Below, piece after piece: positions 2,471 to 22,729 of a stretch of 26,118 bases of DNA. The stretch is from a virus. Its lineage: Duplodnaviria; Caudoviricetes. Below the pieces are notes generated by a model, which ran no database searches, had not been told where the DNA came from, and worked only from the letters and a program-made list of their open reading frames with translations. The stretch's first letter is position 1; the number at the start of each line of letters is the position of its first letter. The translations under genes were made by a program, and so were the position numbers. The stretch is from the IMG/VR virus record IMGVR_UViG_3300031565_004791, positions 1 to 26,118 of that record; one strand, given 5' to 3'.

Positions 2471-4374
2471 CGCATCTTCTCCTGAAGCATGGCTTCATAG
2501 TCGTCGTCGCTGACGTCTCCGCCGGACTCGCCGATCATGGCTTCGTAGTCGTCGTCGCTCACCTCGGGCCCGTCATCGGCGACAGGCTGCGCACGCGGCA
2601 TCGTAGCCGCTGACGCGCTGGCCGCACTCGGCACGCCGCGCGACGTCGCTGCGGTGCCCACCTCGCCGATGCGCTCGAGCGGCTGGCCTGCGACATCGCC
2701 AGTCGTGGCCGCCGCGCGTCCGTATGGTGAGCGCGCGAGCACCTGGCCGACGCGACGCGTCGTGCTGGGATTGCGGGCCGCGGACACGATGCGATCGACG
2801 TCTTCGGCAAGCTCCTGCGCGCGCTGGACCCGCGCGGAGTCGACCGCATCGTCCACGCGTGTCGCCGCATCGCGGTAGCCGCCTGGCGTGCCCTCAGGGG
2901 TCGCGCGCGCTGCGCGGTCCGCCGCCGTCTCGGCGAGCGGCGAGCCGTAGTGTCTGCCGAGCCGCTGCACGAGGTCGGCACGCGTGCGGGTGTAGCGCAC
3001 GAGGTCGTCGACGTAGTCCTGCTCCGCGGGCTCCGCGGCGCGCTGCATGGTGGACTCGACCGCGGGCCGCTTGGCGCGCTGGATCGGGTCCCACTCGTTG
3101 GGGCGCTCGGGCGAGTCTTCCAAGAAGCGTCGAGCCGCGATGCGTCGGGCGGGAATCGCCGCCGTCCACGCCGGGTTGTCCCCGCGCTGAAGCGCGGATG
3201 CGCCGCCCCACTCGGGGCGCTCGAGCGCCGCGCGAACCTCGCCGTACCACTCGCGCAGCGCCTCGGCCGCTTGCGGGTCTGCGTTCGGGTTCGGGTCGCG
3301 GCCACGCATGGGGCCGACGCGGCCTTGCATGCGGCCGATGGCGCGCTTGCCCTGGTCGAGCGCGGCGTAGACCTCGCCGACGTTGCCGCGCTCGATAGCG
3401 CGCTGTGCGCGGACAGCCTGGTCATTCAGTTCTGAACGCAGGTTGGCCAGCGCCGCGCGTCCGCTGCGACCGTAGCGGCCCTGGTCGACGAACTCGCGGC
3501 GAATACGCTCCTGCATGGCCGCAAACCAGTTCATGGCATCGTCGACCGCGCTCGGGTCGGCAGGCTCGCGCGCAAGCGCCTCGCGAAGCGTCGCGGGCTT
3601 GAAGCGGATGCGGTCGGACTCGATGGGGCTGCCGATGCGCTCGAGCTCCGTGACGGCGTCGGACACACGGGCCGCGTCGTCAGCGGTCTGCGTGACGCCA
3701 CGCTGAGCCGCACGGAGGCCGCGCCCGACGCCTCCCACCGCTGCGAGGCCGCCGCTGATGCCGCCGCCGATGGCGCCGCCGATGGCTGCGTCTTGCGCGA
3801 TGCCTTGCGCGTCTTCCGCACGGCTGCCGCCCGCTCCGGCGAGCACGCCCTCGCCAGCGGCTTGCGCCACGCGTGCTGCGACACGCGACCCACCCGACAG
3901 CCCAGCGCCAGCAGCGGGGAGCATGCGGCCCGTGGCGACGCCGCCTGCGACCGCGCCGGGGATGAACGCACTTGGCTCCGCCTCGGCCGCTTCGCCTTGC
4001 TGACGGCGCGTCGCGTCGCGGACGTCGGAGTACCCGAGGTCGGCCGCCGCGCGACCGTAGGCGTCTTCCTGGCCCTCGGGAGCCATGAGCCGCGCAAGAC
4101 CTGCTCGCATCTCCGGCGGCACCGCCTGCGACAGTCCGCCGACGAGCTCGTCCACCCATCCCGCGGTCGCGCCCTCAGCGATGCCACGACCGAACGCCGC
4201 CGCGCGGTCCGCGACGTCCTCGTACTCGGCCGGCAAGAGATTGAGCGCGCGCATGAGCCCGACGATGCGCTCCGCGCGCGACGGCTCGACGCTGCCCGTG
4301 ACCTGCTGCTCCGGCATCTCGATGACGTTGGAGTCCTCGGTGATGTCGAGGCGCTGGAAGCGGTCGCGGCTCAC
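2467..4374 (-). CDS. Putative internal virion / DNA-ejection protein (635 aa)
   Basis: GTGA overlap; Gly/Ala-rich hydrophobic segments (AFGRGIAEGATAGWVDELVGG, AAIGGAIGGGISGGLAAVGGVG); third of three large genes after the nozzle, as in P22-like ejection genes. Confidence 0.6.
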   Translation of the reverse strand: MSRDRFQRLDITEDSNVIEMPEQQVTGSVEPSRAERIVGLMRALNLLPAEYEDVADRAAAFGRGIAEGATAGWVDELVGGLSQAVPPEMRAGLARLMAPEGQEDAYGRAAADLGYSDVRDATRRQQGEAAEAEPSAFIPGAVAGGVATGRMLPAAGAGLSGGSRVAARVAQAAGEGVLAGAGGSRAEDAQGIAQDAAIGGAIGGGISGGLAAVGGVGRGLRAAQRGVTQTADDAARVSDAVTELERIGSPIESDRIRFKPATLREALAREPADPSAVDDAMNWFAAMQERIRREFVDQGRYGRSGRAALANLRSELNDQAVRAQRAIERGNVGEVYAALDQGKRAIGRMQGRVGPMRGRDPNPNADPQAAEALREWYGEVRAALERPEWGGASALQRGDNPAWTAAIPARRIAARRFLEDSPERPNEWDPIQRAKRPAVESTMQRAAEPAEQDYVDDLVRYTRTRADLVQRLGRHYGSPLAETAADRAARATPEGTPGGYRDAATRVDDAVDSARVQRAQELAEDVDRIVSAARNPSTTRRVGQVLARSPYGRAAATTGDVAGQPLERIGEVGTAATSRGVPSAASASAATMPRAQPVADDGPEVSDDDYEAMIGESGGDVSDDDYEAMLQEKMR

Positions 4375-6695
4375 CGGAGCACCTCGAAGCCGGCGCGCTC
4401 GGCACGTGCGCGTTCCTCGGGGGTGTCAGGCCGGACGGCGATGCCGCGAGGCGTCCGCACACGGAATGTCTGTCCGCCTCCGCCGCCGCGGCGCTCGCCG
4501 CCTCCGCCCGAGTCGGGCTCCCAGCCGAGCGCCTGCATCTTGAGCCGGTAGCCGCGGCCGATGACCTGCTGAGCGGCTTGGATCTGATTGCGGATGGCGC
4601 CCGCGCTGCGGAGGTCCGTGACGTCGGGGAACTCACGCCGGAAACGCTCGTACTCGCCCTCGTTGATGACGCCCGTGTTCCGAAGCGCAGGGAGCGAGCC
4701 GATGAATGCGTTGCGCGCCGCTTGATACTGCGCGCCAATCTCAGACTCGCCGATGGCCGTGAGCGCGCGGTCACCGGCGCCAATCTGGCCCGCGATGCGG
4801 AGCATGTCGCCGAGGTTCGCCGTTGCGCTCGCCGCACCCTCGCTCGCATCCTGCCCAGCACGGAGCGTGACCGCGTCCGGCGGCACGTCCCCGTTGCGCC
4901 AGCGCCAGCCGGGCAGATTGTTCGCGCGCGCCACTCGCTCGTCATCCTCGCGGGTGTCGCTCATGGCGGAGCCGCCGACGTACGCGCGCCGCTCTGCGCT
5001 CGAAAGCTGCGACCATGCCTGCGTTACTGCGGCCTCGCGCTCGGCCTCGCTCATGCCCTGGAGCTGCGGGTACTCGCGCTGTGCGAAGTCGCGGAAGCTG
5101 CGCGTCGGCCCGAGGCCCTCGGCGCGTGGCCCGCCGCCCTCACCGGAGCGGCGCTGCGTCTGCCGCGTGCGGAGCCCGTAACGACGCGCCACCTGGTTGT
5201 AGAGCGTCGTCGCGGCGTCCGCGGAGAGCGCGCCAATTTCCTCGTCGGAGATGCGCTCGTCTTCCGGTACGCGCTCCATCAGCGCCCGGAGCTCCTGCTG
5301 CGCCTGACGCGACACCGGCGACTCCGGGTCACGCGCCATCTGCGCCGCCTCGGCCTCGGTGCGCGCGATGTCACCCTGTGCGGTGCGCTGCGCCGCGAGC
5401 GCGCGAGCCGCCTCGGCCTGTGCGCCGACCTGCTCCGCACGGAGCCCGATGCCTTCCTCCATCGCGCCGACGCGTCGCGACTCCAGGTCGAGCCGCTGCG
5501 CCTGCTGCGCCTCGAGCATCTGCGCGCGCCGCTCTTGCGCGGCTTGCGTGATGCGCCGGAGGTCCAGGTCCTCGGCGCCGCGTGCGCGCTGCTCGTCCAC
5601 GCCGCGAGCCTGCGTGATGCGGGCCTGCTGTTGCGTGGGACTGCTGTTGATCATGGCGTTGCCGACCATGCCGCCGGCACCCGCCATGAACTGGGCCGCT
5701 GCGGGGCTGCCGCCGCGTGCGTCGAGCGCGAGCGCGCCAGCGCCCAGGCCGATCTTCGTGATGTACCCGAGCGCCTTGAGGATGCGCTCACGACGCAGCG
5801 CGGTACGCGCCTCGTCCTCGCTCGATGTGTCCAGTGCCTGCTGCGTACCCGCGCTGGACTGCGGCATCGCTGCGGTACGAATGTCCGGCGGAAGCCGCGA
5901 GCCCTGCGGCTGCACGGTCTGCTGGCGCGCGTCCGCTGCGCGCTGTTGATCGGGAAGTGGCGCGGCCGCCGGAGGCGCGGGAGGAGCGAGGGGAGAGGAG
6001 GGAGACTCCTGCGCCCCCGGCGGCTGTGCCGGACCCGATGCGGGGGAGCCCATCGGGGTCGTCTGCTGAGGCGCCACGGTGCCGCTCTGCGGCTGCGGCG
6101 TGACGGGAGGCGGCGCACCTCCGCCGCCGAGGTTTGCGCGCGCTTGCGAGGCGCTGGCGACGTCTGCGGCGTCCTGCTGCGCGTCGAGCGCGTCAAAGTT
6201 GACCGCGCGACCGCCCGCCGCGCCCTGCTGGTACGGTGCGCTCGCGTCGAGCACACGCTGATACGGGTCCGGCTGCTCGGCCGGCGCGTTGGGTGTGAAG
6301 CGGATCTCATCCTCGGGAATGTCGACGTTCGCTTGAAAGCGAATCTCATCCTCGGGAATGCTCATCTGGAACTGCGGTGTGACCGGCGTCTGCGGCTCGT
6401 CTCGCTGCGTGGCGATGGACTCGAGGGCGCGCCGCTGAATGGGCGCACCGCGGTCATCCTCGCGCACCTGCCGTCGCTCGAAAGAGCCCAACGACGACTC
6501 GCGGCGCGACTCGGCCGCTTCGTCCATCTGTGCCTGGCGCTCTTCGGCCGCTTCGGCCTCCGCAGCGCGACGCTCCTCGGCCGCCTCCTCTGCCTCGCGC
6601 GCAGCTTCCTCGGCCTTGCGGCGCTCCTCTTCCTCGCGCGCCTTGTTGCCGTTGGAGCCGCCGTCGAGCAGCCCGCCAATAAGGGGAATGCCCAT
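4371..6695 (-). CDS. Putative internal virion / DNA-ejection protein (774 aa)
   Basis: Start ATG 6695 (MGIPLIGGLL) by TGATG overlap; charged coiled coil, Pro/Gln-rich linker, hydrophobic Gly/Ala hairpin, helical C-terminus; synteny. Confidence 0.6.
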   Translation of the reverse strand: MGIPLIGGLLDGGSNGNKAREEEERRKAEEAAREAEEAAEERRAAEAEAAEERQAQMDEAAESRRESSLGSFERRQVREDDRGAPIQRRALESIATQRDEPQTPVTPQFQMSIPEDEIRFQANVDIPEDEIRFTPNAPAEQPDPYQRVLDASAPYQQGAAGGRAVNFDALDAQQDAADVASASQARANLGGGGAPPPVTPQPQSGTVAPQQTTPMGSPASGPAQPPGAQESPSSPLAPPAPPAAAPLPDQQRAADARQQTVQPQGSRLPPDIRTAAMPQSSAGTQQALDTSSEDEARTALRRERILKALGYITKIGLGAGALALDARGGSPAAAQFMAGAGGMVGNAMINSSPTQQQARITQARGVDEQRARGAEDLDLRRITQAAQERRAQMLEAQQAQRLDLESRRVGAMEEGIGLRAEQVGAQAEAARALAAQRTAQGDIARTEAEAAQMARDPESPVSRQAQQELRALMERVPEDERISDEEIGALSADAATTLYNQVARRYGLRTRQTQRRSGEGGGPRAEGLGPTRSFRDFAQREYPQLQGMSEAEREAAVTQAWSQLSSAERRAYVGGSAMSDTREDDERVARANNLPGWRWRNGDVPPDAVTLRAGQDASEGAASATANLGDMLRIAGQIGAGDRALTAIGESEIGAQYQAARNAFIGSLPALRNTGVINEGEYERFRREFPDVTDLRSAGAIRNQIQAAQQVIGRGYRLKMQALGWEPDSGGGGERRGGGGGQTFRVRTPRGIAVRPDTPEERARAERAGFEVLR

Positions 6696-13262: not shown

Positions 13263-14516
13263 TCAGATCGCCTGGCTGTTGACGATGCCGGTGAAGAGCA
13301 CGCTGCACGCCGGCTTGAAGCTGACGAGCGCCTGGTCCCACCACTGCCGAAGCTCGAAGCCAGCGTTCGACTCCAGTTCGCGGAAGAACCGCTCTTGCTG
13401 ACCGGTGACGCCGGGGAGCCGGAACGTCAGGTCCGCCGAGCCGACGCGCTTGAAGTAGCGGTCGGCCGTGAGAAAGGCCTCGCCGGCCTTGATCATCGGG
13501 TGCGGCTTGATCTCAATGGTGCCGGTCTGCCCGTAGAACACGAGCTTCTCGGTGCCGAGGTCGGCTTCCATCCGCATCTTCGCCGCGTAGCGCCGGAGCG
13601 CCGCCGCATCGTTGTTGAAGTCGCTCCAGGTGTACGGCGACACGCGGAGCGTAAGCGGCCCGAGACCACCACGGAACGCCGCTCGAGCCGAGCCGCGCAT
13701 GACCTTGGCGAACGTCAGCGCCGCGCCGCCCGCGCCGATGCCGTTGCCGCGCCACAGTCCGTAGGTCGCTGCGTTGATGTTGTGCATCGTGCCCGTGTTC
13801 GGCACAAGCACGCGAAGGCCGTCGAACCACGCCGCGTCCGCCTCGAAGGGGATGACGACGTCGCTCGCCTGGATCGCGTTGTTGTCCGCCACCACGCCGG
13901 TGAGCGTCACCGACCGCGTGTCGAAGTCGACGTTCGAGATGGTGAGCGCGCCGTTCGTGTTGCGCCGCGTGCCGCCGGGCGCGCTGTACACATCGACGCT
14001 CGCGCCTTCCATCTGTGCCCACAGGCCGGGGGCCCAAGACGCCTCGGTGATGACGTACGTCACCGAGGCTGCCGCGGAGCCCGCGCCCGTCAGCGTGCCA
14101 ATCGAGTCGCCACCGTAGAGGATGTTCAGCTCGCGGTAGAACGACATCGAGTTGCGCATGTCGCGGACGACGTCGTCGAACGCCGACCCGAAGGCCTCGA
14201 CGCTGGATCGCGCGCGGCTGACCACGCCATACGCGACCTGCTCGCGCATAACGGCCTGGTAGCCCTTCTCGCGGCCCGGCACAGTCTGGCCGCTGACGAC
14301 CGCGTTGAGCGCGAACGCCGTCGCGGTCTGCCCGCCCCACGTCATGCCATGGGCACGCCGCACGCGGACGTTGAAGACGTATTCGTCGCCGAGCTTCTCG
14401 GACTCCGAGAACACCATGCTCTCGGCGAGGTCACTGAATTCCGGGACGATGTCGCGTCCCTTGGTCTCGTAGCGGTCTTTGAACCAGCCATCGAGCGTAG
14501 TTTCGGTCACGGTCAT
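13263..14516 (-). CDS. Major capsid protein (417 aa)
   Basis: Position after portal and scaffold; size; strongly GC3-biased codons; GGAG RBS; HK97-fold-like pattern (DMRNSMSFYRELNILYGG, HNINAATYGLWRGN, IEIKPHPMIKAGEAF, KPACSVLFTGI). Confidence 0.85.
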   Translation of the reverse strand: MTVTETTLDGWFKDRYETKGRDIVPEFSDLAESMVFSESEKLGDEYVFNVRVRRAHGMTWGGQTATAFALNAVVSGQTVPGREKGYQAVMREQVAYGVVSRARSSVEAFGSAFDDVVRDMRNSMSFYRELNILYGGDSIGTLTGAGSAAASVTYVITEASWAPGLWAQMEGASVDVYSAPGGTRRNTNGALTISNVDFDTRSVTLTGVVADNNAIQASDVVIPFEADAAWFDGLRVLVPNTGTMHNINAATYGLWRGNGIGAGGAALTFAKVMRGSARAAFRGGLGPLTLRVSPYTWSDFNNDAAALRRYAAKMRMEADLGTEKLVFYGQTGTIEIKPHPMIKAGEAFLTADRYFKRVGSADLTFRLPGVTGQQERFFRELESNAGFELRQWWDQALVSFKPACSVLFTGIVNSQAI

Positions 14517-14670
14517 GGTGAAAATCTCCGAGGAAATGCCCGTTTCGGGGCGGTTCTTCGGCTGCCTTCACGTGTCGTGACCGGCTCCGTGGAGCACACC
14601 GGGCCCGAGGGTTACCGGCGGCTCATCGACGAAGCGGGCCCGAGGCTACGGAGCCTTGGGGTTTGTTTGC
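14517..14670 (-). promoter_or_regulatory. Structured 5' leader of the MCP gene
   Basis: 8-bp inverted repeat GGCTCCGT (14583-14590)/ACGGAGCC (14648-14655) enclosing two copies of CGGGCCCGAGG (14600-14610, 14635-14645); small hairpin just before the RBS. Confidence 0.5.
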
Positions 14671-14744
14671 TGCGCACCGCACGGAGTTTAACCGTGTCCG
14701 CGGGGATGCCTCCACCGGGTGCTGACGTTACACCACAGCGCGCA
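14671..14744 (-). ncRNA. tRNA-like cloverleaf RNA (degenerate anticodon arm, no encoded CCA)
   Basis: Acceptor CGCGCUG/CGGUGCG (extends to 9 bp), U8, D-arm GUGU-AACGUCA-GCAC, arm CGGUG-GAGGCAU-CCCCG, 4-nt variable loop, T-arm CACGG-UUAAACU-CCGUG; 70 nt from position 1 to 72. Confidence 0.7.
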
Positions 14745-14780
14745 TGCACACCATGGCACGCCGTGCCGGAGCGTGTCAAG
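14704..14780. repeat. 77-bp direct repeat, copy 1 (promoter + 5' half of tRNA-like RNA)
   Basis: 73/77 identical to 15009-15085 by hand alignment. Confidence 0.95.
14750..14779 (-). promoter_or_regulatory. Sigma70-type promoter for tRNA-like RNA and MCP
   Basis: Perfect TTGACA (14774-14779), 18-bp spacer, TG-n-CATGGT extended -10-like element; predicted +1 falls at the 5' end of the cloverleaf. Confidence 0.55.
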
Positions 14781-14970
14781 CGAGCGTCAGATTCCCGATT
14801 GGGGTGGCGTACTCCTGCGCCTTGTCGATGAACGACCACAGGATGCCGTAAGCGTTGCACGGGATGCCTTTGTGGACGAAGTCGCCTCGCGTTGCAGGGT
14901 CCTCGGTGAGCCAGTTGAGCGCCGCTCGCGCGAGGGTGCAGTCGCCGTCGGTCAGGTGAAGGTCAGACAT
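14776..14970 (-). CDS. Orphan cassette ORF, 64 aa (MSDLHLTDGDC...PIGNLTLA)
   Basis: GAGGA RBS 5 nt upstream, supplied by the duplicated scaffold tail; stop TGA lies inside the TTGACA hexamer of repeat copy 1. Confidence 0.6.
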   Translation of the reverse strand: MSDLHLTDGDCTLARAALNWLTEDPATRGDFVHKGIPCNAYGILWSFIDKAQEYATPIGNLTLA

Positions 14971-15010
14971 CGATGTCCTCGCCGTTGAGGAGCCGCGAGT
15001 ATTGCTCCGG
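14961..15010 (-). repeat. Second copy of the scaffold gene 3' end (PEQYSRLLNGEDIDV-stop)
   Basis: 44/50 identical to 15294-15343; all 6 differences are third-position synonymous in the scaffold frame. Confidence 0.95.
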
Positions 15011-15085
15011 ATGCCTCCACCGGGTGCTGACGTTACACCACAGCGCGCATGCACACCGTGACACGGTGTGCCGGAGCGTGTCAAG
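15009..15085. repeat. 77-bp direct repeat, copy 2 (promoter + tRNA-like 5' half truncated after the anticodon loop)
   Basis: 73/77 identical to 14704-14780; TTGACA at 15079-15084 (minus); contains perfect palindrome GCACACCGTG-A-CACGGTGTGC (15051-15071). Confidence 0.95.
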
Positions 15086-15299
15086 TCGGGCTGATGCCCA
15101 TCGCTCGCCGCAGCATGTCGACCGGGTACAAGCGGCGAAAGAACGCGTCTAGCGCCGCCGGCAGCCCACTCCGATACGCATCCATCGCGTCGCGAGCGTT
15201 CCATACCCTTGCCGCGAGCCTTGCGGGAGGAGCGTGGTTCGCGTACCGGCGCTCTAGCCGGCGCTGACGCTGGAGCCGACGTAGCGCGCGGCGGGTCAT
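15081..15299 (-). CDS. Orphan cassette ORF, 72 aa, Arg-rich
   Basis: ATGA overlap with scaffold stop, GAGGA 9 nt upstream; stop TGA lies inside the TTGACA hexamer of repeat copy 2. Confidence 0.55.
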   Translation of the reverse strand: MTRRALRRLQRQRRLERRYANHAPPARLAARVWNARDAMDAYRSGLPAALDAFFRRLYPVDMLRRAMGISPT

Positions 15300-16234
15300 A
15301 CGTCGATGTCCTCGCCGTTCAGCAGTCGCGAGTATTGCTCGGGCGTGAGCTGCGACGAGTGGATGCGCTTCTTCGGCGCTGCACCCGCTGCCGGGCGTCC
15401 CCCATTGGGCTTCGGGCGCGTCGCGTTTCGGTGTGCTTTGGCCTTCTCGATGTCCTGTTGACGCACCGCGTCGAGCTTGTCGCCGAGGAGCGCACGCAGT
15501 TGGTCCGGGCTCATGTCGCCGAGAAGCGAGCGGCTGTGCGTCGTCATCTCCTCGCGCACGACCTGCACGGCGTCCTCCACCGTGAAGCTGCGGTCGCCCG
15601 CGTCGAAGGCCGCGGCGAGCACCTTGGCCACCTCGGACATCATGCGCTGGCTCTTGGGCAGCCCGGCGCTTTCGAGGCCCTTGCTGATGCTCTCGATGTA
15701 CTTGGCGCGCTCGCGCTTCTCGGCCGCGGACGCCGCCGCTTCCTCGCGCTGGCGCTTCTCGGCTGCCTCGCGGTCGGCAAGGGCCTTTTCGCGCGCCGCG
15801 AGGGCGCGCTCGCGCTTGACGTCCTCCGGCGTGCGCTCCTCGGCCTCGATGAGCTCGCGGAGCTGCCTCGGGTTCACCCCGAGGTGCTGCGCCACGGCGA
15901 GGAGCCCGGCGGGGTCGCGCACGGTGTCGAGGAGCTCCCGCACCTGCGCCTTTTCGGCCTCGGTCTCTTTGCGGAGCCGCGCGGCCTCTTCCATGCGCTT
16001 ATGGCTGGCGCTGCGGAGAGTGTAGTCCCGGAGCGCGTCGCGGGCCTTGATGCGCCTCTGCTCGCCGTCAACGGTGACGGTGACGAAGCGGTCGAGATCC
16101 GCCTCGGTCAGTTCGCCGGTCTCGAGCGCCTCGCGAATCTCGGTCGCGGCCGTCTGCGCGGTTGGCGCGCCGCCTGTCGGTGCCGCGGTGCCTTGCGGCT
16201 CTGCGCCGCCTTCGGTGAATCCCTCGTCGCTCAT
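15296..16234 (-). CDS. Capsid scaffolding protein (312 aa)
   Basis: Between portal and MCP; acidic N-terminus, VTVTVDGEQRRI motif, long charged coiled coils, basic/Pro-rich C-terminal tail; GAGGAGGG RBS. Confidence 0.8.
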   Translation of the reverse strand: MSDEGFTEGGAEPQGTAAPTGGAPTAQTAATEIREALETGELTEADLDRFVTVTVDGEQRRIKARDALRDYTLRSASHKRMEEAARLRKETEAEKAQVRELLDTVRDPAGLLAVAQHLGVNPRQLRELIEAEERTPEDVKRERALAAREKALADREAAEKRQREEAAASAAEKRERAKYIESISKGLESAGLPKSQRMMSEVAKVLAAAFDAGDRSFTVEDAVQVVREEMTTHSRSLLGDMSPDQLRALLGDKLDAVRQQDIEKAKAHRNATRPKPNGGRPAAGAAPKKRIHSSQLTPEQYSRLLNGEDIDV

Positions 16235-16244
16235 TCGTCCCTCC

Positions 16245-18311
16245 TCACATTCCCTGTCCGGCCTGCGGGTCGTACGGGGCTTCCTGCCCCGGAACCGTCG
16301 GCATGTTCGGCATGTTCACGCCCGCTTGTGCGGCGAGCGGGTCCTCCGGCACGTCCTGTAGCGGCGCCTGCTGGCCGCCACCCGGATTGCCGCCCGGCAT
16401 GGGCGCGCCACCTGCGTCCGGGGGCTGCATCCCGCCACCCGCGTCGGGCCACGGCGGCAAGCCGATGAGGCCCAGCATGCCGGGATTGCCCACGGTGAGC
16501 TGCTGCCACATCTCGATGTGAAGCTGGATGTGGTCGAGCACGACCGACGTGAGCTCTTCGTTCTCGCGGTTCTCCGGCTCGTCGAGCAGCGCGAAATGCG
16601 CCTCGATGTGGTCGGCATGGTGGTCGGTGAGGAGTACGCGCGCGGGCTTGCCCTGGCACAGCAGGTCGTTCTCCGAGAGGATGCCGCGGAGCTTCGTGTC
16701 CGGACGGTCCAGCAGCGGCTCGTAGCGGCCCGTGCTGAGCATCTGGAGATACTGCTCGGGCCGCTGGAAGACCTGGCGCTCCAGGAACTTGTCCGCGATG
16801 TCCATCCGGCCGCTCGACGTGCGCATGATCGCGTTCCCCGTGTCCACCGCGATGCGCCGAATGCCTGCCACATCCTGTCCGCGGAAGTCGCGCACCCATG
16901 CGCCACCGCGAGGGCCAGCGACGGCAACGAGCCGGGGCTTCGTCATGTACCGACGTGCGCAGTCGAGCCAATGCGTGCCGATGCGCTCGTAAAGCATCGC
17001 GTATGCCGACTGAAGCCCGCTGTTGTACTGCACGGCCATGCTGTGAATCAGCGCCGCCATCGCGCCGCTCTTGACGTTCGCGTCAGGCTGCCCGCGCGCG
17101 ACGTCGTTGATACCGCTGATGCTCTCCATGTAGCTGCCGATCATCTCGGCAAATTTCATCGACGGCCCAAGGTCCGGCATGAGGTCCACGAGCTCCGGCT
17201 TCGCCGTCGACTCCCAGTGCGTCATCCCGTTGGAAAGCTCCTTGGTGTCGAGCCCCGAGCCGCGCGGCGTCCACACGTTGCGGAGGGCGCCCGCGTCGTG
17301 GCATGTGGCAATCGCGCTCACGACCGAGTCGAGCACGTCCTGTAGGCCCATGAGGTCCCACGCGGTCGTGTAGCCGAACGCGGTCTTCGTCTCGATGTCC
17401 GGCCGCATCGCCATGCACGGGATGACGTCGTACGGCAGCGGCCCGTCGAAGAGCACCGTGTCCCCGACGACCATCGCAAAACGGCCCTGCGGCATGGCCG
17501 GCGTACGCGCGTGGTAGAACTCGAGCGCACTGATGCGGTCGGGCTGCTCGCGCTCCTCGCGGCTGAACAGGTCCACCGTGAGCTGCGGGGCCGCGGGTGC
17601 GGAGCGGATGGCCTCGGCTGCGTCCGGGTACTGCGCGAGCAGGTCCCACCGGCTGACGCGCGTGTGCACCGCGAGCCAGTCTTCATCCTCGACGCTGGCA
17701 TCGTGCGAGGGGTCGCGGATGACGTCGAGCGGCATGACGGCGCGCGCGGTGATGTCGCCCTGGTAGATGACGCGGTCCACGAGCTCGCCCGTGCTCTCGT
17801 CCTCGACCTGCTCGACCTCGATGGGCTCGCCGCGCTCGGGGTCCCACGTGACGAGCACCCAGCCCTCGCCGTAGCGTAGCGCGAAGCGGTCGGCCTCCTG
17901 CATGGCCCTCTCGAGCTTGTGCTCTTCGAGGTAATACTCGAAGACTTGCTCGGCCATGCGCGCGGCGGTCTGACTCGACGCGCTCGCGTTGATGCCGCGA
18001 GCGTTCAGCGTCGGGCGCGTGCCGGTGATGAGCACGTGGGTGTGCTCCAGCAGGCTGCGGAACTGGTTGCTGCGGACGAGCACGGTCTCGCCCTGCTGGC
18101 CGCCGTAGCCGACGCGGTCGCTCGACATAGTCGGGTCGTCGGAGCGGCCGAAGAAGAGGTTGTGCGCGTGCTGCCACCGCTCTAGGAAGCCGCTCTGCTG
18201 CACGTACTCCAGGTAGCGCGACCACGCGCGGTTCAGGCGCGCGGGCAGCTCCTCGGTGGGGCTCGCGCACCAGTACCAATCAAGGCCCGCTCCGGGCTGG
18301 TCAGTCGCCAT
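16245..18311 (-). CDS. Portal protein (688 aa)
   Basis: After TerL; motifs ALRYGEGWVLVTWDP, MESISGINDVARG...SGAMAAL, Pro/Gln/Gly-rich disordered tail typical of P22-like podophage portals. Confidence 0.85.
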   Translation of the reverse strand: MATDQPGAGLDWYWCASPTEELPARLNRAWSRYLEYVQQSGFLERWQHAHNLFFGRSDDPTMSSDRVGYGGQQGETVLVRSNQFRSLLEHTHVLITGTRPTLNARGINASASSQTAARMAEQVFEYYLEEHKLERAMQEADRFALRYGEGWVLVTWDPERGEPIEVEQVEDESTGELVDRVIYQGDITARAVMPLDVIRDPSHDASVEDEDWLAVHTRVSRWDLLAQYPDAAEAIRSAPAAPQLTVDLFSREEREQPDRISALEFYHARTPAMPQGRFAMVVGDTVLFDGPLPYDVIPCMAMRPDIETKTAFGYTTAWDLMGLQDVLDSVVSAIATCHDAGALRNVWTPRGSGLDTKELSNGMTHWESTAKPELVDLMPDLGPSMKFAEMIGSYMESISGINDVARGQPDANVKSGAMAALIHSMAVQYNSGLQSAYAMLYERIGTHWLDCARRYMTKPRLVAVAGPRGGAWVRDFRGQDVAGIRRIAVDTGNAIMRTSSGRMDIADKFLERQVFQRPEQYLQMLSTGRYEPLLDRPDTKLRGILSENDLLCQGKPARVLLTDHHADHIEAHFALLDEPENRENEELTSVVLDHIQLHIEMWQQLTVGNPGMLGLIGLPPWPDAGGGMQPPDAGGAPMPGGNPGGGQQAPLQDVPEDPLAAQAGVNMPNMPTVPGQEAPYDPQAGQGM

Positions 18312-21812: not shown

Positions 21813-22729
21813 ATCGCCCTCGCGGCCGCCGGGATCGCATCCTTCGTCAACTCCGCCCATCGTGCCACGACGAAGCCGAGCCGCCACACAAGCGGCTTGC
21901 CTCGGAAGTCCGGCGCGTGCGATGCGTCGTAGAGCTCCCCAAAGCGCCGCATGGCGCCCATCGCGATCGACCGCGCCGCTCGCCCATGGTCGTCCCAGCC
22001 GCGAGCCTCGGACATCTCCGGGGCCAGCTCGAGGACGCGTCGCTCGATGCTCTCGACGTGGGTCAGGTCCCGGCGTCGGTCTGCGTCGGTCGGTCGCATG
22101 CCGCGGGCTCGGCTGACGGCCAGCCATGCTCGCCATGGGAGCTCGAGGCTGCTCACGGTGTCGTACTCGCCGAGGGGGTCCGGGCAGTCGATCGAAGAGC
22201 CCGGTCGCGCACGGGCGCGCGGAGAGTGCGTAGCACTCTCTCTCCTCTCCTCTCCTCTCCTCTCCTCTGTCCGAGTGGTATTGAACGATTGCATAGACTT
22301 AGCTTCGTCACCAGATCCGTCAGAGGTCACGCAGAGGTCCGTCAGAGGCTCGGCAGAGGATCCGCAGAGGTCCGTCAGAGGCTCGGCAGAGGACGACAGA
22401 GGCTTCGCAGAGGCTCGCTTCCGGGCCGTCTTCGTGGTCGCCCCTTCGGCCTGGTAGCGGTCCCATCCTGGCAGGCTGGCGACTCCATGGCTCACCACGA
22501 TGCACCCGTCCGAAAGGAGCTCCTCGACACACCGGCGCACGATGCGGCGCTCATGCCTCTCGACGCCAAGACGGCGACACACCTCGTCGCCAAGCGGCCG
22601 CCCTCCGAGCGTCATCGTGCCGTCGTCCTCCACGAGCTCGGTGAAGATCTCGCGGAACACCGCCCGCGTCAGCGGCGATAGCAGCGCGAAACTCCCAGTG
22701 GCCCGCCACGACCGACGCCACGGCTTCAT
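21809..22729 (-). CDS. Replication initiator (lambda O / replisome-organiser-like), 306 aa
   Basis: N-terminal winged-helix-like region ending LPGWDRYQ; repeat-encoded linker; EERRGEERRE tract; adjacent to DnaB. Confidence 0.7.
   Translation of the reverse strand: MKPWRRSWRATGSFALLSPLTRAVFREIFTELVEDDGTMTLGGRPLGDEVCRRLGVERHERRIVRRCVEELLSDGCIVVSHGVASLPGWDRYQAEGATTKTARKRASAKPLSSSAEPLTDLCGSSAEPLTDLCVTSDGSGDEAKSMQSFNTTRTEERRGEERRESATHSPRARARPGSSIDCPDPLGEYDTVSSLELPWRAWLAVSRARGMRPTDADRRRDLTHVESIERRVLELAPEMSEARGWDDHGRAARSIAMGAMRRFGELYDASHAPDFRGKPLVWRLGFVVARWAELTKDAIPAAARAM
22236..22413. repeat. Putative replication origin: nine phased CAGAGG repeats, AT-richer patch and polypyrimidine tract
   Basis: CAGAGG at 22321, 22332, 22343, 22354, 22365, 22376, 22387, 22397, 22408; 30-bp exact repeat 22331-22360/22364-22393; (TCTCC)5 at 22241-22265. 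Confidence 0.75.

Follow-up and report, generated by a model that had tools for sequence, protein, structure and literature searches.

Two scaffold gene ends in tandem in a soil phage: what looks like an accessory-gene swap caught in progress

Why should a phage carry, downstream of its scaffold gene, a second and orphan copy of that gene's last codons that differs from the first only at silent sites? We followed this question in a 26,118-nt stretch of viral DNA (the window), in which the terminase, portal, major capsid, DnaB and RusA families were matched. The minus-strand order at the locus is portal, scaffold with its in-frame end (tail A), ORF72, R1, the orphan end (tail B), ORF64, R2, leader and major capsid. 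A tandem, [tail A-ORF72-R1][tail B-ORF64-R2], thus lies between the predicted scaffold and major capsid genes; its repeated unit comprises a tail, a small ORF and an R element, with lengths of 333 and 305 bp. The features are:

16245..18311, minus strand, portal gene (phrog_156, E 2.7e-25)
15296..16234, minus strand, predicted scaffold gene of 312 aa, with 11 homologues
15296..15343, minus strand, tail A, the in-frame scaffold end, with a GAGGA SD-like motif and the ATG of ORF72
15081..15299, minus strand, ORF72, accessory gene with its stop within the TTGACA of R1; a 51% identical homologue lies in the same slot of the relative L004
15009..15085, minus strand, R1, a promoter-like motif and the first 39 nt of a tRNA-like element
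15006..15012, minus strand, non-homologous joint at which R1 meets tail B, with no more than 2 nt of microhomology
14963..15010, minus strand, tail B, the orphan, with a GAGGA SD-like motif and the ATG of ORF64
14994..15007, minus strand, 14-nt run identical to 15327-15340, the switch interval of the scaffold-tail B genome of sequencing run X6
14776..14970, minus strand, ORF64, accessory gene, 19 aa shorter than its 83-aa relatives
14704..14780, minus strand, R2, the second R copy, with the identical 49-nt core at 14704-14752
14671..14743, minus strand, intact, non-canonical tRNA-like cloverleaf formed by R2 and following bases, with GGC at the anticodon position
14517..14665, minus strand, structured leader of the major capsid gene (folding z -2.96)
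13263..14516, minus strand, major capsid gene (phrog_14242, E 5.8e-8)

The two tails (14963-15010 and 15296-15343, both minus strand) each translate to PEQYSRLLNGEDIDV* and differ at 6 of 48 bases. Every difference is at a third position and synonymous (tail A/tail B codon pairs CCC/CCG, CGA/CGG, CTG/CTC twice, GAC/GAT and GTA/GTC), which bears out the preliminary description of this DNA, where the copies were said to encode one peptide with third-position differences only. With transition weights of 1-4, the chance that random substitution would give only synonymous differences is 4.6e-4 to 2.6e-3 for the five differences that remain when the Pro codon is excluded and 1.0e-4 to 8.1e-4 for all six. 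At roughly 1e-4 to 3e-3, neutral decay of a copy is unlikely, as that description had argued. The similarity ends before the Pro codon upstream and 2 bases past the stop downstream. No comparable orphan copy was found for any of 12 other gene ends tested.

The tails also serve the genes that follow them. The ATG of the following ORF lies within the last codons of each tail, 9 nt from the GAGGA motif in tail A and 5 nt in tail B, and the silent changes do set which ATG exists, as had been claimed: ORF72 starts at 15299 and ORF64 at 14970. Because a tail thus provides its following ORF with both SD motif and ATG, we think that the orphan is likely kept as the translation start of ORF64, behind the putative R1 promoter, and not as coding sequence; its silent differences would be inherited from a past as a real gene end.

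The 312-aa gene is predicted to encode the phage scaffold from its position between the portal and major capsid genes, an order also found in the relatives L004 and L014; the protein had no family or structure match in PHROG, Pfam, NCBIfam or PDB. In phage P22 the scaffold C-terminus binds coat protein, and such binding would explain the conserved tail residues. The major capsid protein additionally gave a weak SU10_MCP match, below the cut-off. ORF72 and ORF64 both stop at the TGA of R's TTGACA, and the tandem holds a single non-homologous joint, at which R1 ends and tail B begins. Searches for a function of ORF72 and of ORF64 or its 83-aa form gave nothing significant in Pfam, PHROGs, PADLOC, NCBIfam or ESM Atlas. 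ORF72 is predicted to fold into four helices (pLDDT 68, pTM 0.27), and this model had no Foldseek match among viral structures. A longer fused form of ORF64 was looked for and none was found, which counts for little. Elsewhere in the window, short intragenic tandem duplications occur at 2488-2582 (47 nt, in a 635-aa gene) and 6287-6360 (35 nt, in an 840-aa gene).

A possible objection is that the tandem is an assembly or library chimera of two co-occurring strains, and both single-allele forms described below do appear to be present in the same soils. However, the homology at the joint is at most 2 nt. The tandem recurs in a second assembly, where 11,269 bases show 5 differences, all of them outside the locus, while a third record stops exactly at the R1 end. 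With only 5 differing sites in 11 kb, the assemblies of the window's phage are nearly clonal. We further examined six runs (X1-X6), namely the 6 of 24 listed runs that held at least 96% of the sampled words. Every one of these is a soil run of 2019, four are possibly the window's own source, and the six may even come from one campaign, so they do not represent independent habitats. A joint-spanning unitig, built from read 31-mers, is present in all six at a depth of 37-89. Two pure strains lacking the joint are ruled out, as their simulated unitigs would not include the joint unitig. The chimera that the preliminary description had held up as a danger is thereby excluded by six runs of six and a second assembly, and we give any residual form of it a negligible chance.

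The reads also reveal that the tandem is not alone. Run X6 contains a 46-nt unitig at 15311-15356 with three variant letters and a depth of 22.4, next to pieces of 285, 61 and 329 nt. We simulated k=31 unitigs for a mixture of the tandem with a genome that switches from the scaffold to tail B within the 14-nt identical run, and the simulation gives the X6 unitigs of 46/49/61/285/329 nt exactly. A crossover in the 17-nt identical run was rejected; it predicts unitigs of 43/82/264/305 nt, none of which is seen. We therefore conclude that there exists a genome with an intact scaffold gene, tail B and ORF64 but no ORF72. It makes up about 26% of X6 and was found in this one run of the six, contigs being prone to drop rare variants. 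An intact scaffold gene that ends in the 14963-15010 allele and is followed by ORF64 is what the preliminary description had set out as the thing to find, and its presence in X6 supports the claim made there that both tails are real gene ends from two phages. This genome has the Pro codon of the in-frame tail, and its flanks are identical to the window, so that it represents either the pre-insertion state or a collapse product, and no independent donor. The 46-nt unitig is an empty site with the other tail in frame, as expected for an insert of the e14/icd type. The preliminary description did not have the tail-ORF-R unit, the half tRNA-like element in R or the polymorphism of the locus.

The reciprocal form, with ORF72 and without ORF64, is indicated by read depth. 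The depth of the cassette relative to the scaffold side is 0.51-0.55 in X1-X3 and 0.82-0.84 in X4-X5, and the depth of the R core, present in 4 of the 5 runs X1-X5, fits a mixture of genomes better than two copies per genome. Least squares on depth, a rough measure (the two flanks differ by up to ~20%), puts the genomes lacking ORF64 at 24-58% in X1-X5 and 8% in X6. As this form adds no new k-mer, depth is the one line of evidence for it, and it probably exists alongside the tandem. Taken together, the locus looks like an accessory-gene swap caught in progress, with the doubled form accompanied by one shortened form and likely by a second.

Where might the two alleles have come from? Relatives are few: viral collections held only the window's phage (two records) and L004, genome collections only L014, and the metagenome collection (12 of 64 parts covered) only the window's phage, and among GenBank phages nothing matched the capsid protein or R. 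The leader pattern recovered 46 stretches from the genome collections, of which one had scaffold and capsid genes and 45 were unrelated. No independent donor genome turned up in the viral and genome collections or in the 12 of 64 metagenome parts. L004 (66% capsid identity) has the scaffold gene, the 51% identical ORF72 homologue and the leader as in the window, together with a clear promoter, TTGACG-N17-TACATT; in L014 the promoter directly follows the scaffold stop, leaving a slot without an ORF. What lies between the scaffold stop and the capsid promoter is thus variable: nothing in L014, an ORF72 homologue in L004 and both ORFs in the window. The orphan tail is absent from L004 and L014.

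The protein cluster of ORF64 has five members, among which three of 83 aa start with MSDL, the start that the overlap with tail B dictates, and one of 63 aa starts with MT; ORF64 itself is without 19 residues of the three 83-aa relatives, and the 63-aa relative has a third N-terminus. ORF72 is the sole member of its 90% cluster. The last 15 residues are identical in every close scaffold that extends to the C-terminus (P0003, P0013, P0018-P0022). One of them, P0013, has a response-regulator receiver domain fused to the last ~95 scaffold residues on a 1476-nt contig, and is likely a chimeric contig; P0013 and P0015 seem to share one contig, judging from equal source and length (1476 nt), an observation of little weight with P0013 being chimeric. 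A second variable slot lies between portal and scaffold, where L004 has a 93-aa ORF (3383-3664) and L014 an unrelated 58-aa ORF (3789-3965), neither with a family match, and where the window has none.

The divergence between the tails is like that of separate lineages. Silent differences affect 5 of 14 codons (0.36) between tail A and tail B, and silent divergence at identical residues of capsid and scaffold is 0.34-0.45 between the window and L004/L014. Because the tails have diverged at silent sites to the L004/L014 level in a nearly clonal population, they probably had long separate coding histories. This bears on an alternative in which the orphan is a local duplicate conserved as protein, translated either within a 33-aa peptide (14963-15064), whose last part it would form, or as a leader that couples translation to ORF64. 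The frame is indeed open from a GTG in R1 to the orphan's stop, which overlaps the ORF64 start region. Yet that GTG has no preceding SD-like motif and lies upstream of the predicted R transcription start, and the same frame in R2 leads to an unrelated 23-aa end. Near-saturated silent divergence would moreover be hard to reach locally in a nearly clonal population, and a local origin would leave unexplained why the tails are followed by different ORFs. We regard local translation as quite improbable.

We instead favour, as the probable explanation, a two-allele tandem that arose by a single non-homologous joining of two related phages and that collapses by homology at the tail or at R. DNA of the two phages would have been joined once by non-homologous recombination, leaving two slot alleles in tandem; because the illegitimate joint placed the alleles in this way, both flanking linkers are now duplicated. 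Recombination in the R core would then lose ORF64, and recombination in the duplicated tail would lose ORF72. A one-step crossover, an integrated mini-circle, or local duplication with allele replacement would each produce the same sequence.

The phage appears equipped for such a collapse. A 38.6-kb record (G001; CheckV completeness 72%) overlapping the window at both ends has a gene for an annealing protein of the Bet family, above the TIGR01913 cut-off, with an adjoining exonuclease gene, and we infer that this Bet/Exo system likely carries out the collapse. Red-beta recombines short diverged sequences, with a quoted minimal pairing segment of 23-27 bp (PMC3945230). The longest identical runs in the tails are 14 and 17 nt, below that segment. 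The R event looks common and the tail event rare, which fits, as the 49-nt core exceeds 23-27 bp and the 14-nt run is shorter. G001 had no match to PF00589 or PF00239, the families searched for tyrosine and serine recombinases. The record begins and ends at an 11-nt tandem repeat array (window 22318-22394) whose copy number varies between assemblies; these repeats are possibly replication-origin iterons near DnaB.

Which tail is native is a separate matter. The preliminary description read the orphan as foreign capture; its two-phage origin is supported, while the orphan as the foreign copy is not established, its codons fitting the scaffold body better. In that body 20 of 25 leucines are CTC, and tail B has CTC CTC where tail A has CTG CTG. 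Over the three free codons, the likelihood ratio in favour of a native tail B is 80 when scaffold frequencies are used and 7.5 when seven-gene frequencies are; over all five codons it is 62 and 12, respectively, although an argument on direction from only three free codons is a slender one. Among 15-codon windows, codon fit places tail A at the 3rd percentile and tail B at the 35th, and ORF72 is more foreign in codon use than ORF64 (0.47 versus 0.65). From its codons, then, the orphan may be a native end that was displaced. On the other side, most genomes have tail A in frame, and an ORF72 homologue fills the L004 slot. On codon usage we lean slightly towards tail B/ORF64 as native and tail A/ORF72 as incoming with a replacement gene end; the converse, with tail A/ORF72 native and tail B/ORF64 incoming, we hold to be a little short of an even chance.

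The right linker, R, has features of its own. R1 and R2 are identical at 73 of 77 bases, including the 49-nt 3' core, and these are the only two R copies in the 38.6-kb record. A TTGACA-N18-CA(T/C)GGT motif in R ends 7 nt before the tRNA-like element; its sequence would fit a promoter, in a position like that of the clear L004 and L014 promoters, and a scan with the sigma-70 consensus did not call R a promoter. No terminator-like site was found on the minus strand between 13000 and 19000. R1 also has a perfect 9-bp palindrome across the spacer and -10 region, which holds all four R1/R2 differences, and the capsid promoters of L004 (4820-4850) and L014 (4946-4976) have a GC hairpin within their 17-nt spacer.

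The cloverleaf at 14671-14743 reaches 93% of the ARAGORN threshold; when the 201-nt region was dinucleotide-shuffled 1000 times, one shuffle attained 90%; it is called neither at the ARAGORN default threshold nor by RF00005, and its folding z-score is -1.33. Its arms have standard lengths, with pair probabilities of 0.76-0.92 for the acceptor, D and T arms and a weak anticodon stem. Taking the usual tRNA position names (U33, G18G19, T-loop TTC) to apply here, it is without U33 and CCA and has A33, G18T19 and T-loop TTA. The usual tRNA contact is G19-C56; at that site the cloverleaf shows T19-A56. It is not a canonical tRNA gene. An Rfam hit to the mascRNA family was rejected as membership (26.1 bits against a cut-off of 42.5). 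The element is absent from L004 and L014 and was not found in genome contigs or GenBank phages; it lies at the predicted 5' end of the capsid transcript and looks undescribed. Beyond it, the capsid leader keeps two sequence blocks in L004 (4864-5000) and L014 (4990-5126), at 63-66% capsid identity, and had no Rfam match; we consider it a candidate regulatory RNA.

R1 holds the promoter-like motif and 39 nt of this element, broken off two bases past the anticodon loop, and partial tRNA duplications usually mark integration events (PMC9897764). In an alternative reading, [tail-ORF-promoter-5' tRNA half] units form a cassette system without an integrase, cut at the anticodon arm, circularise, and enter the scaffold 3' end or R, repeatedly, to give arrays. 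Apart from the position of the joint two bases past the loop, the 7 nt that span the joint have their complement at R1 positions 9-15, with which they pair in the predicted fold; both ORFs end in the same TTGACA, and the ORF64 relatives have three different N-termini. The mini-circles of PeSL (PMC2839356) are a precedent, and a 305-bp circle would share graph edges with the tandem. However, the coincidences of joint with loop and of the 7-nt complementarity were spotted post hoc, and the 7-nt loop is not common to the sequence upstream of the tail. A single joint and a single array of two units were seen, the 38.6-kb record has no third copy of R, L004 and L014 have neither orphan tail nor tRNA-like element, and the searches for tyrosine and serine recombinases gave none. 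Recombination of the integrase type at the anticodon loop was rejected, there being no shared 7-nt core and no integrase. We judge the cassette system unlikely. If it were true, cassettes would enter an essential gene at its 3' end and bring a new end for it along, and the tandem would be a programmed intermediate by which populations switch between alternative late accessory genes.

The joining of two phages followed by homologous collapse can be compared with known systems. Nearest are the T4-type phages, with linker-mediated modular exchange and PeSL+ORFan cassettes: there, homologous recombination between promoter-bearing repeats adds, removes or replaces small ORFs with no dedicated integrase (PMC2839356), and the window locus probably works in a like way. 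Unlike the PeSL case, the window locus has two R copies and no dispersed family, its left linker is coding sequence from the end of a core gene, and R holds half a tRNA-like element and no terminator; mini-circles, on record for PeSL (PMC2839356), would be hypothetical here. As with e14 at icd/icdC, a duplicated C-terminal gene fragment flanks an insert and the gene stays intact, most differences between the two copies are silent, and a genome without the insert has the other gene end, as in X6 (PMC13626634, PMC10111431); unlike e14, the inserted 333 bp carry one small ORF and sit in a gene of a phage, and no integrase turned up. Red and Rad52-like systems share the pairing of Bet with an exonuclease (PMC3945230), and Red-made duplications are likewise unstable and segregate single-allele progeny (PMC545071), but here the first joint is non-homologous and the Bet/Exo of the window's phage is predicted. 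Finally, lambdoid morons are also solitary accessory genes of a morphogenesis region gained illegitimately (PMC2839356), but ORF72 and ORF64 run in operon direction, take their start codon from a scaffold tail and are not followed by a terminator.

A literature search, which took in few subscription papers and no supplements, found no report of this arrangement. Our best reading is that the locus is a variant of known phage modular exchange, with underlying processes that are known. Whether phages swap unrelated genes at a fixed position illegitimately or by linker homology is treated as a matter of debate in PMC3945230. Since one illegitimate joint and then homologous resolution are needed at this locus, the two routes would here act in sequence. 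Intermediates of such exchange are rarely available; here the tandem, one demonstrated product and another probable one coexist in nearly clonal soil populations. What stands out is that the intermediate coexists in nature with one product and probably with the other, and that a core gene's recoded end serves as the left linker; the locus is an unusually complete snapshot of modular exchange.
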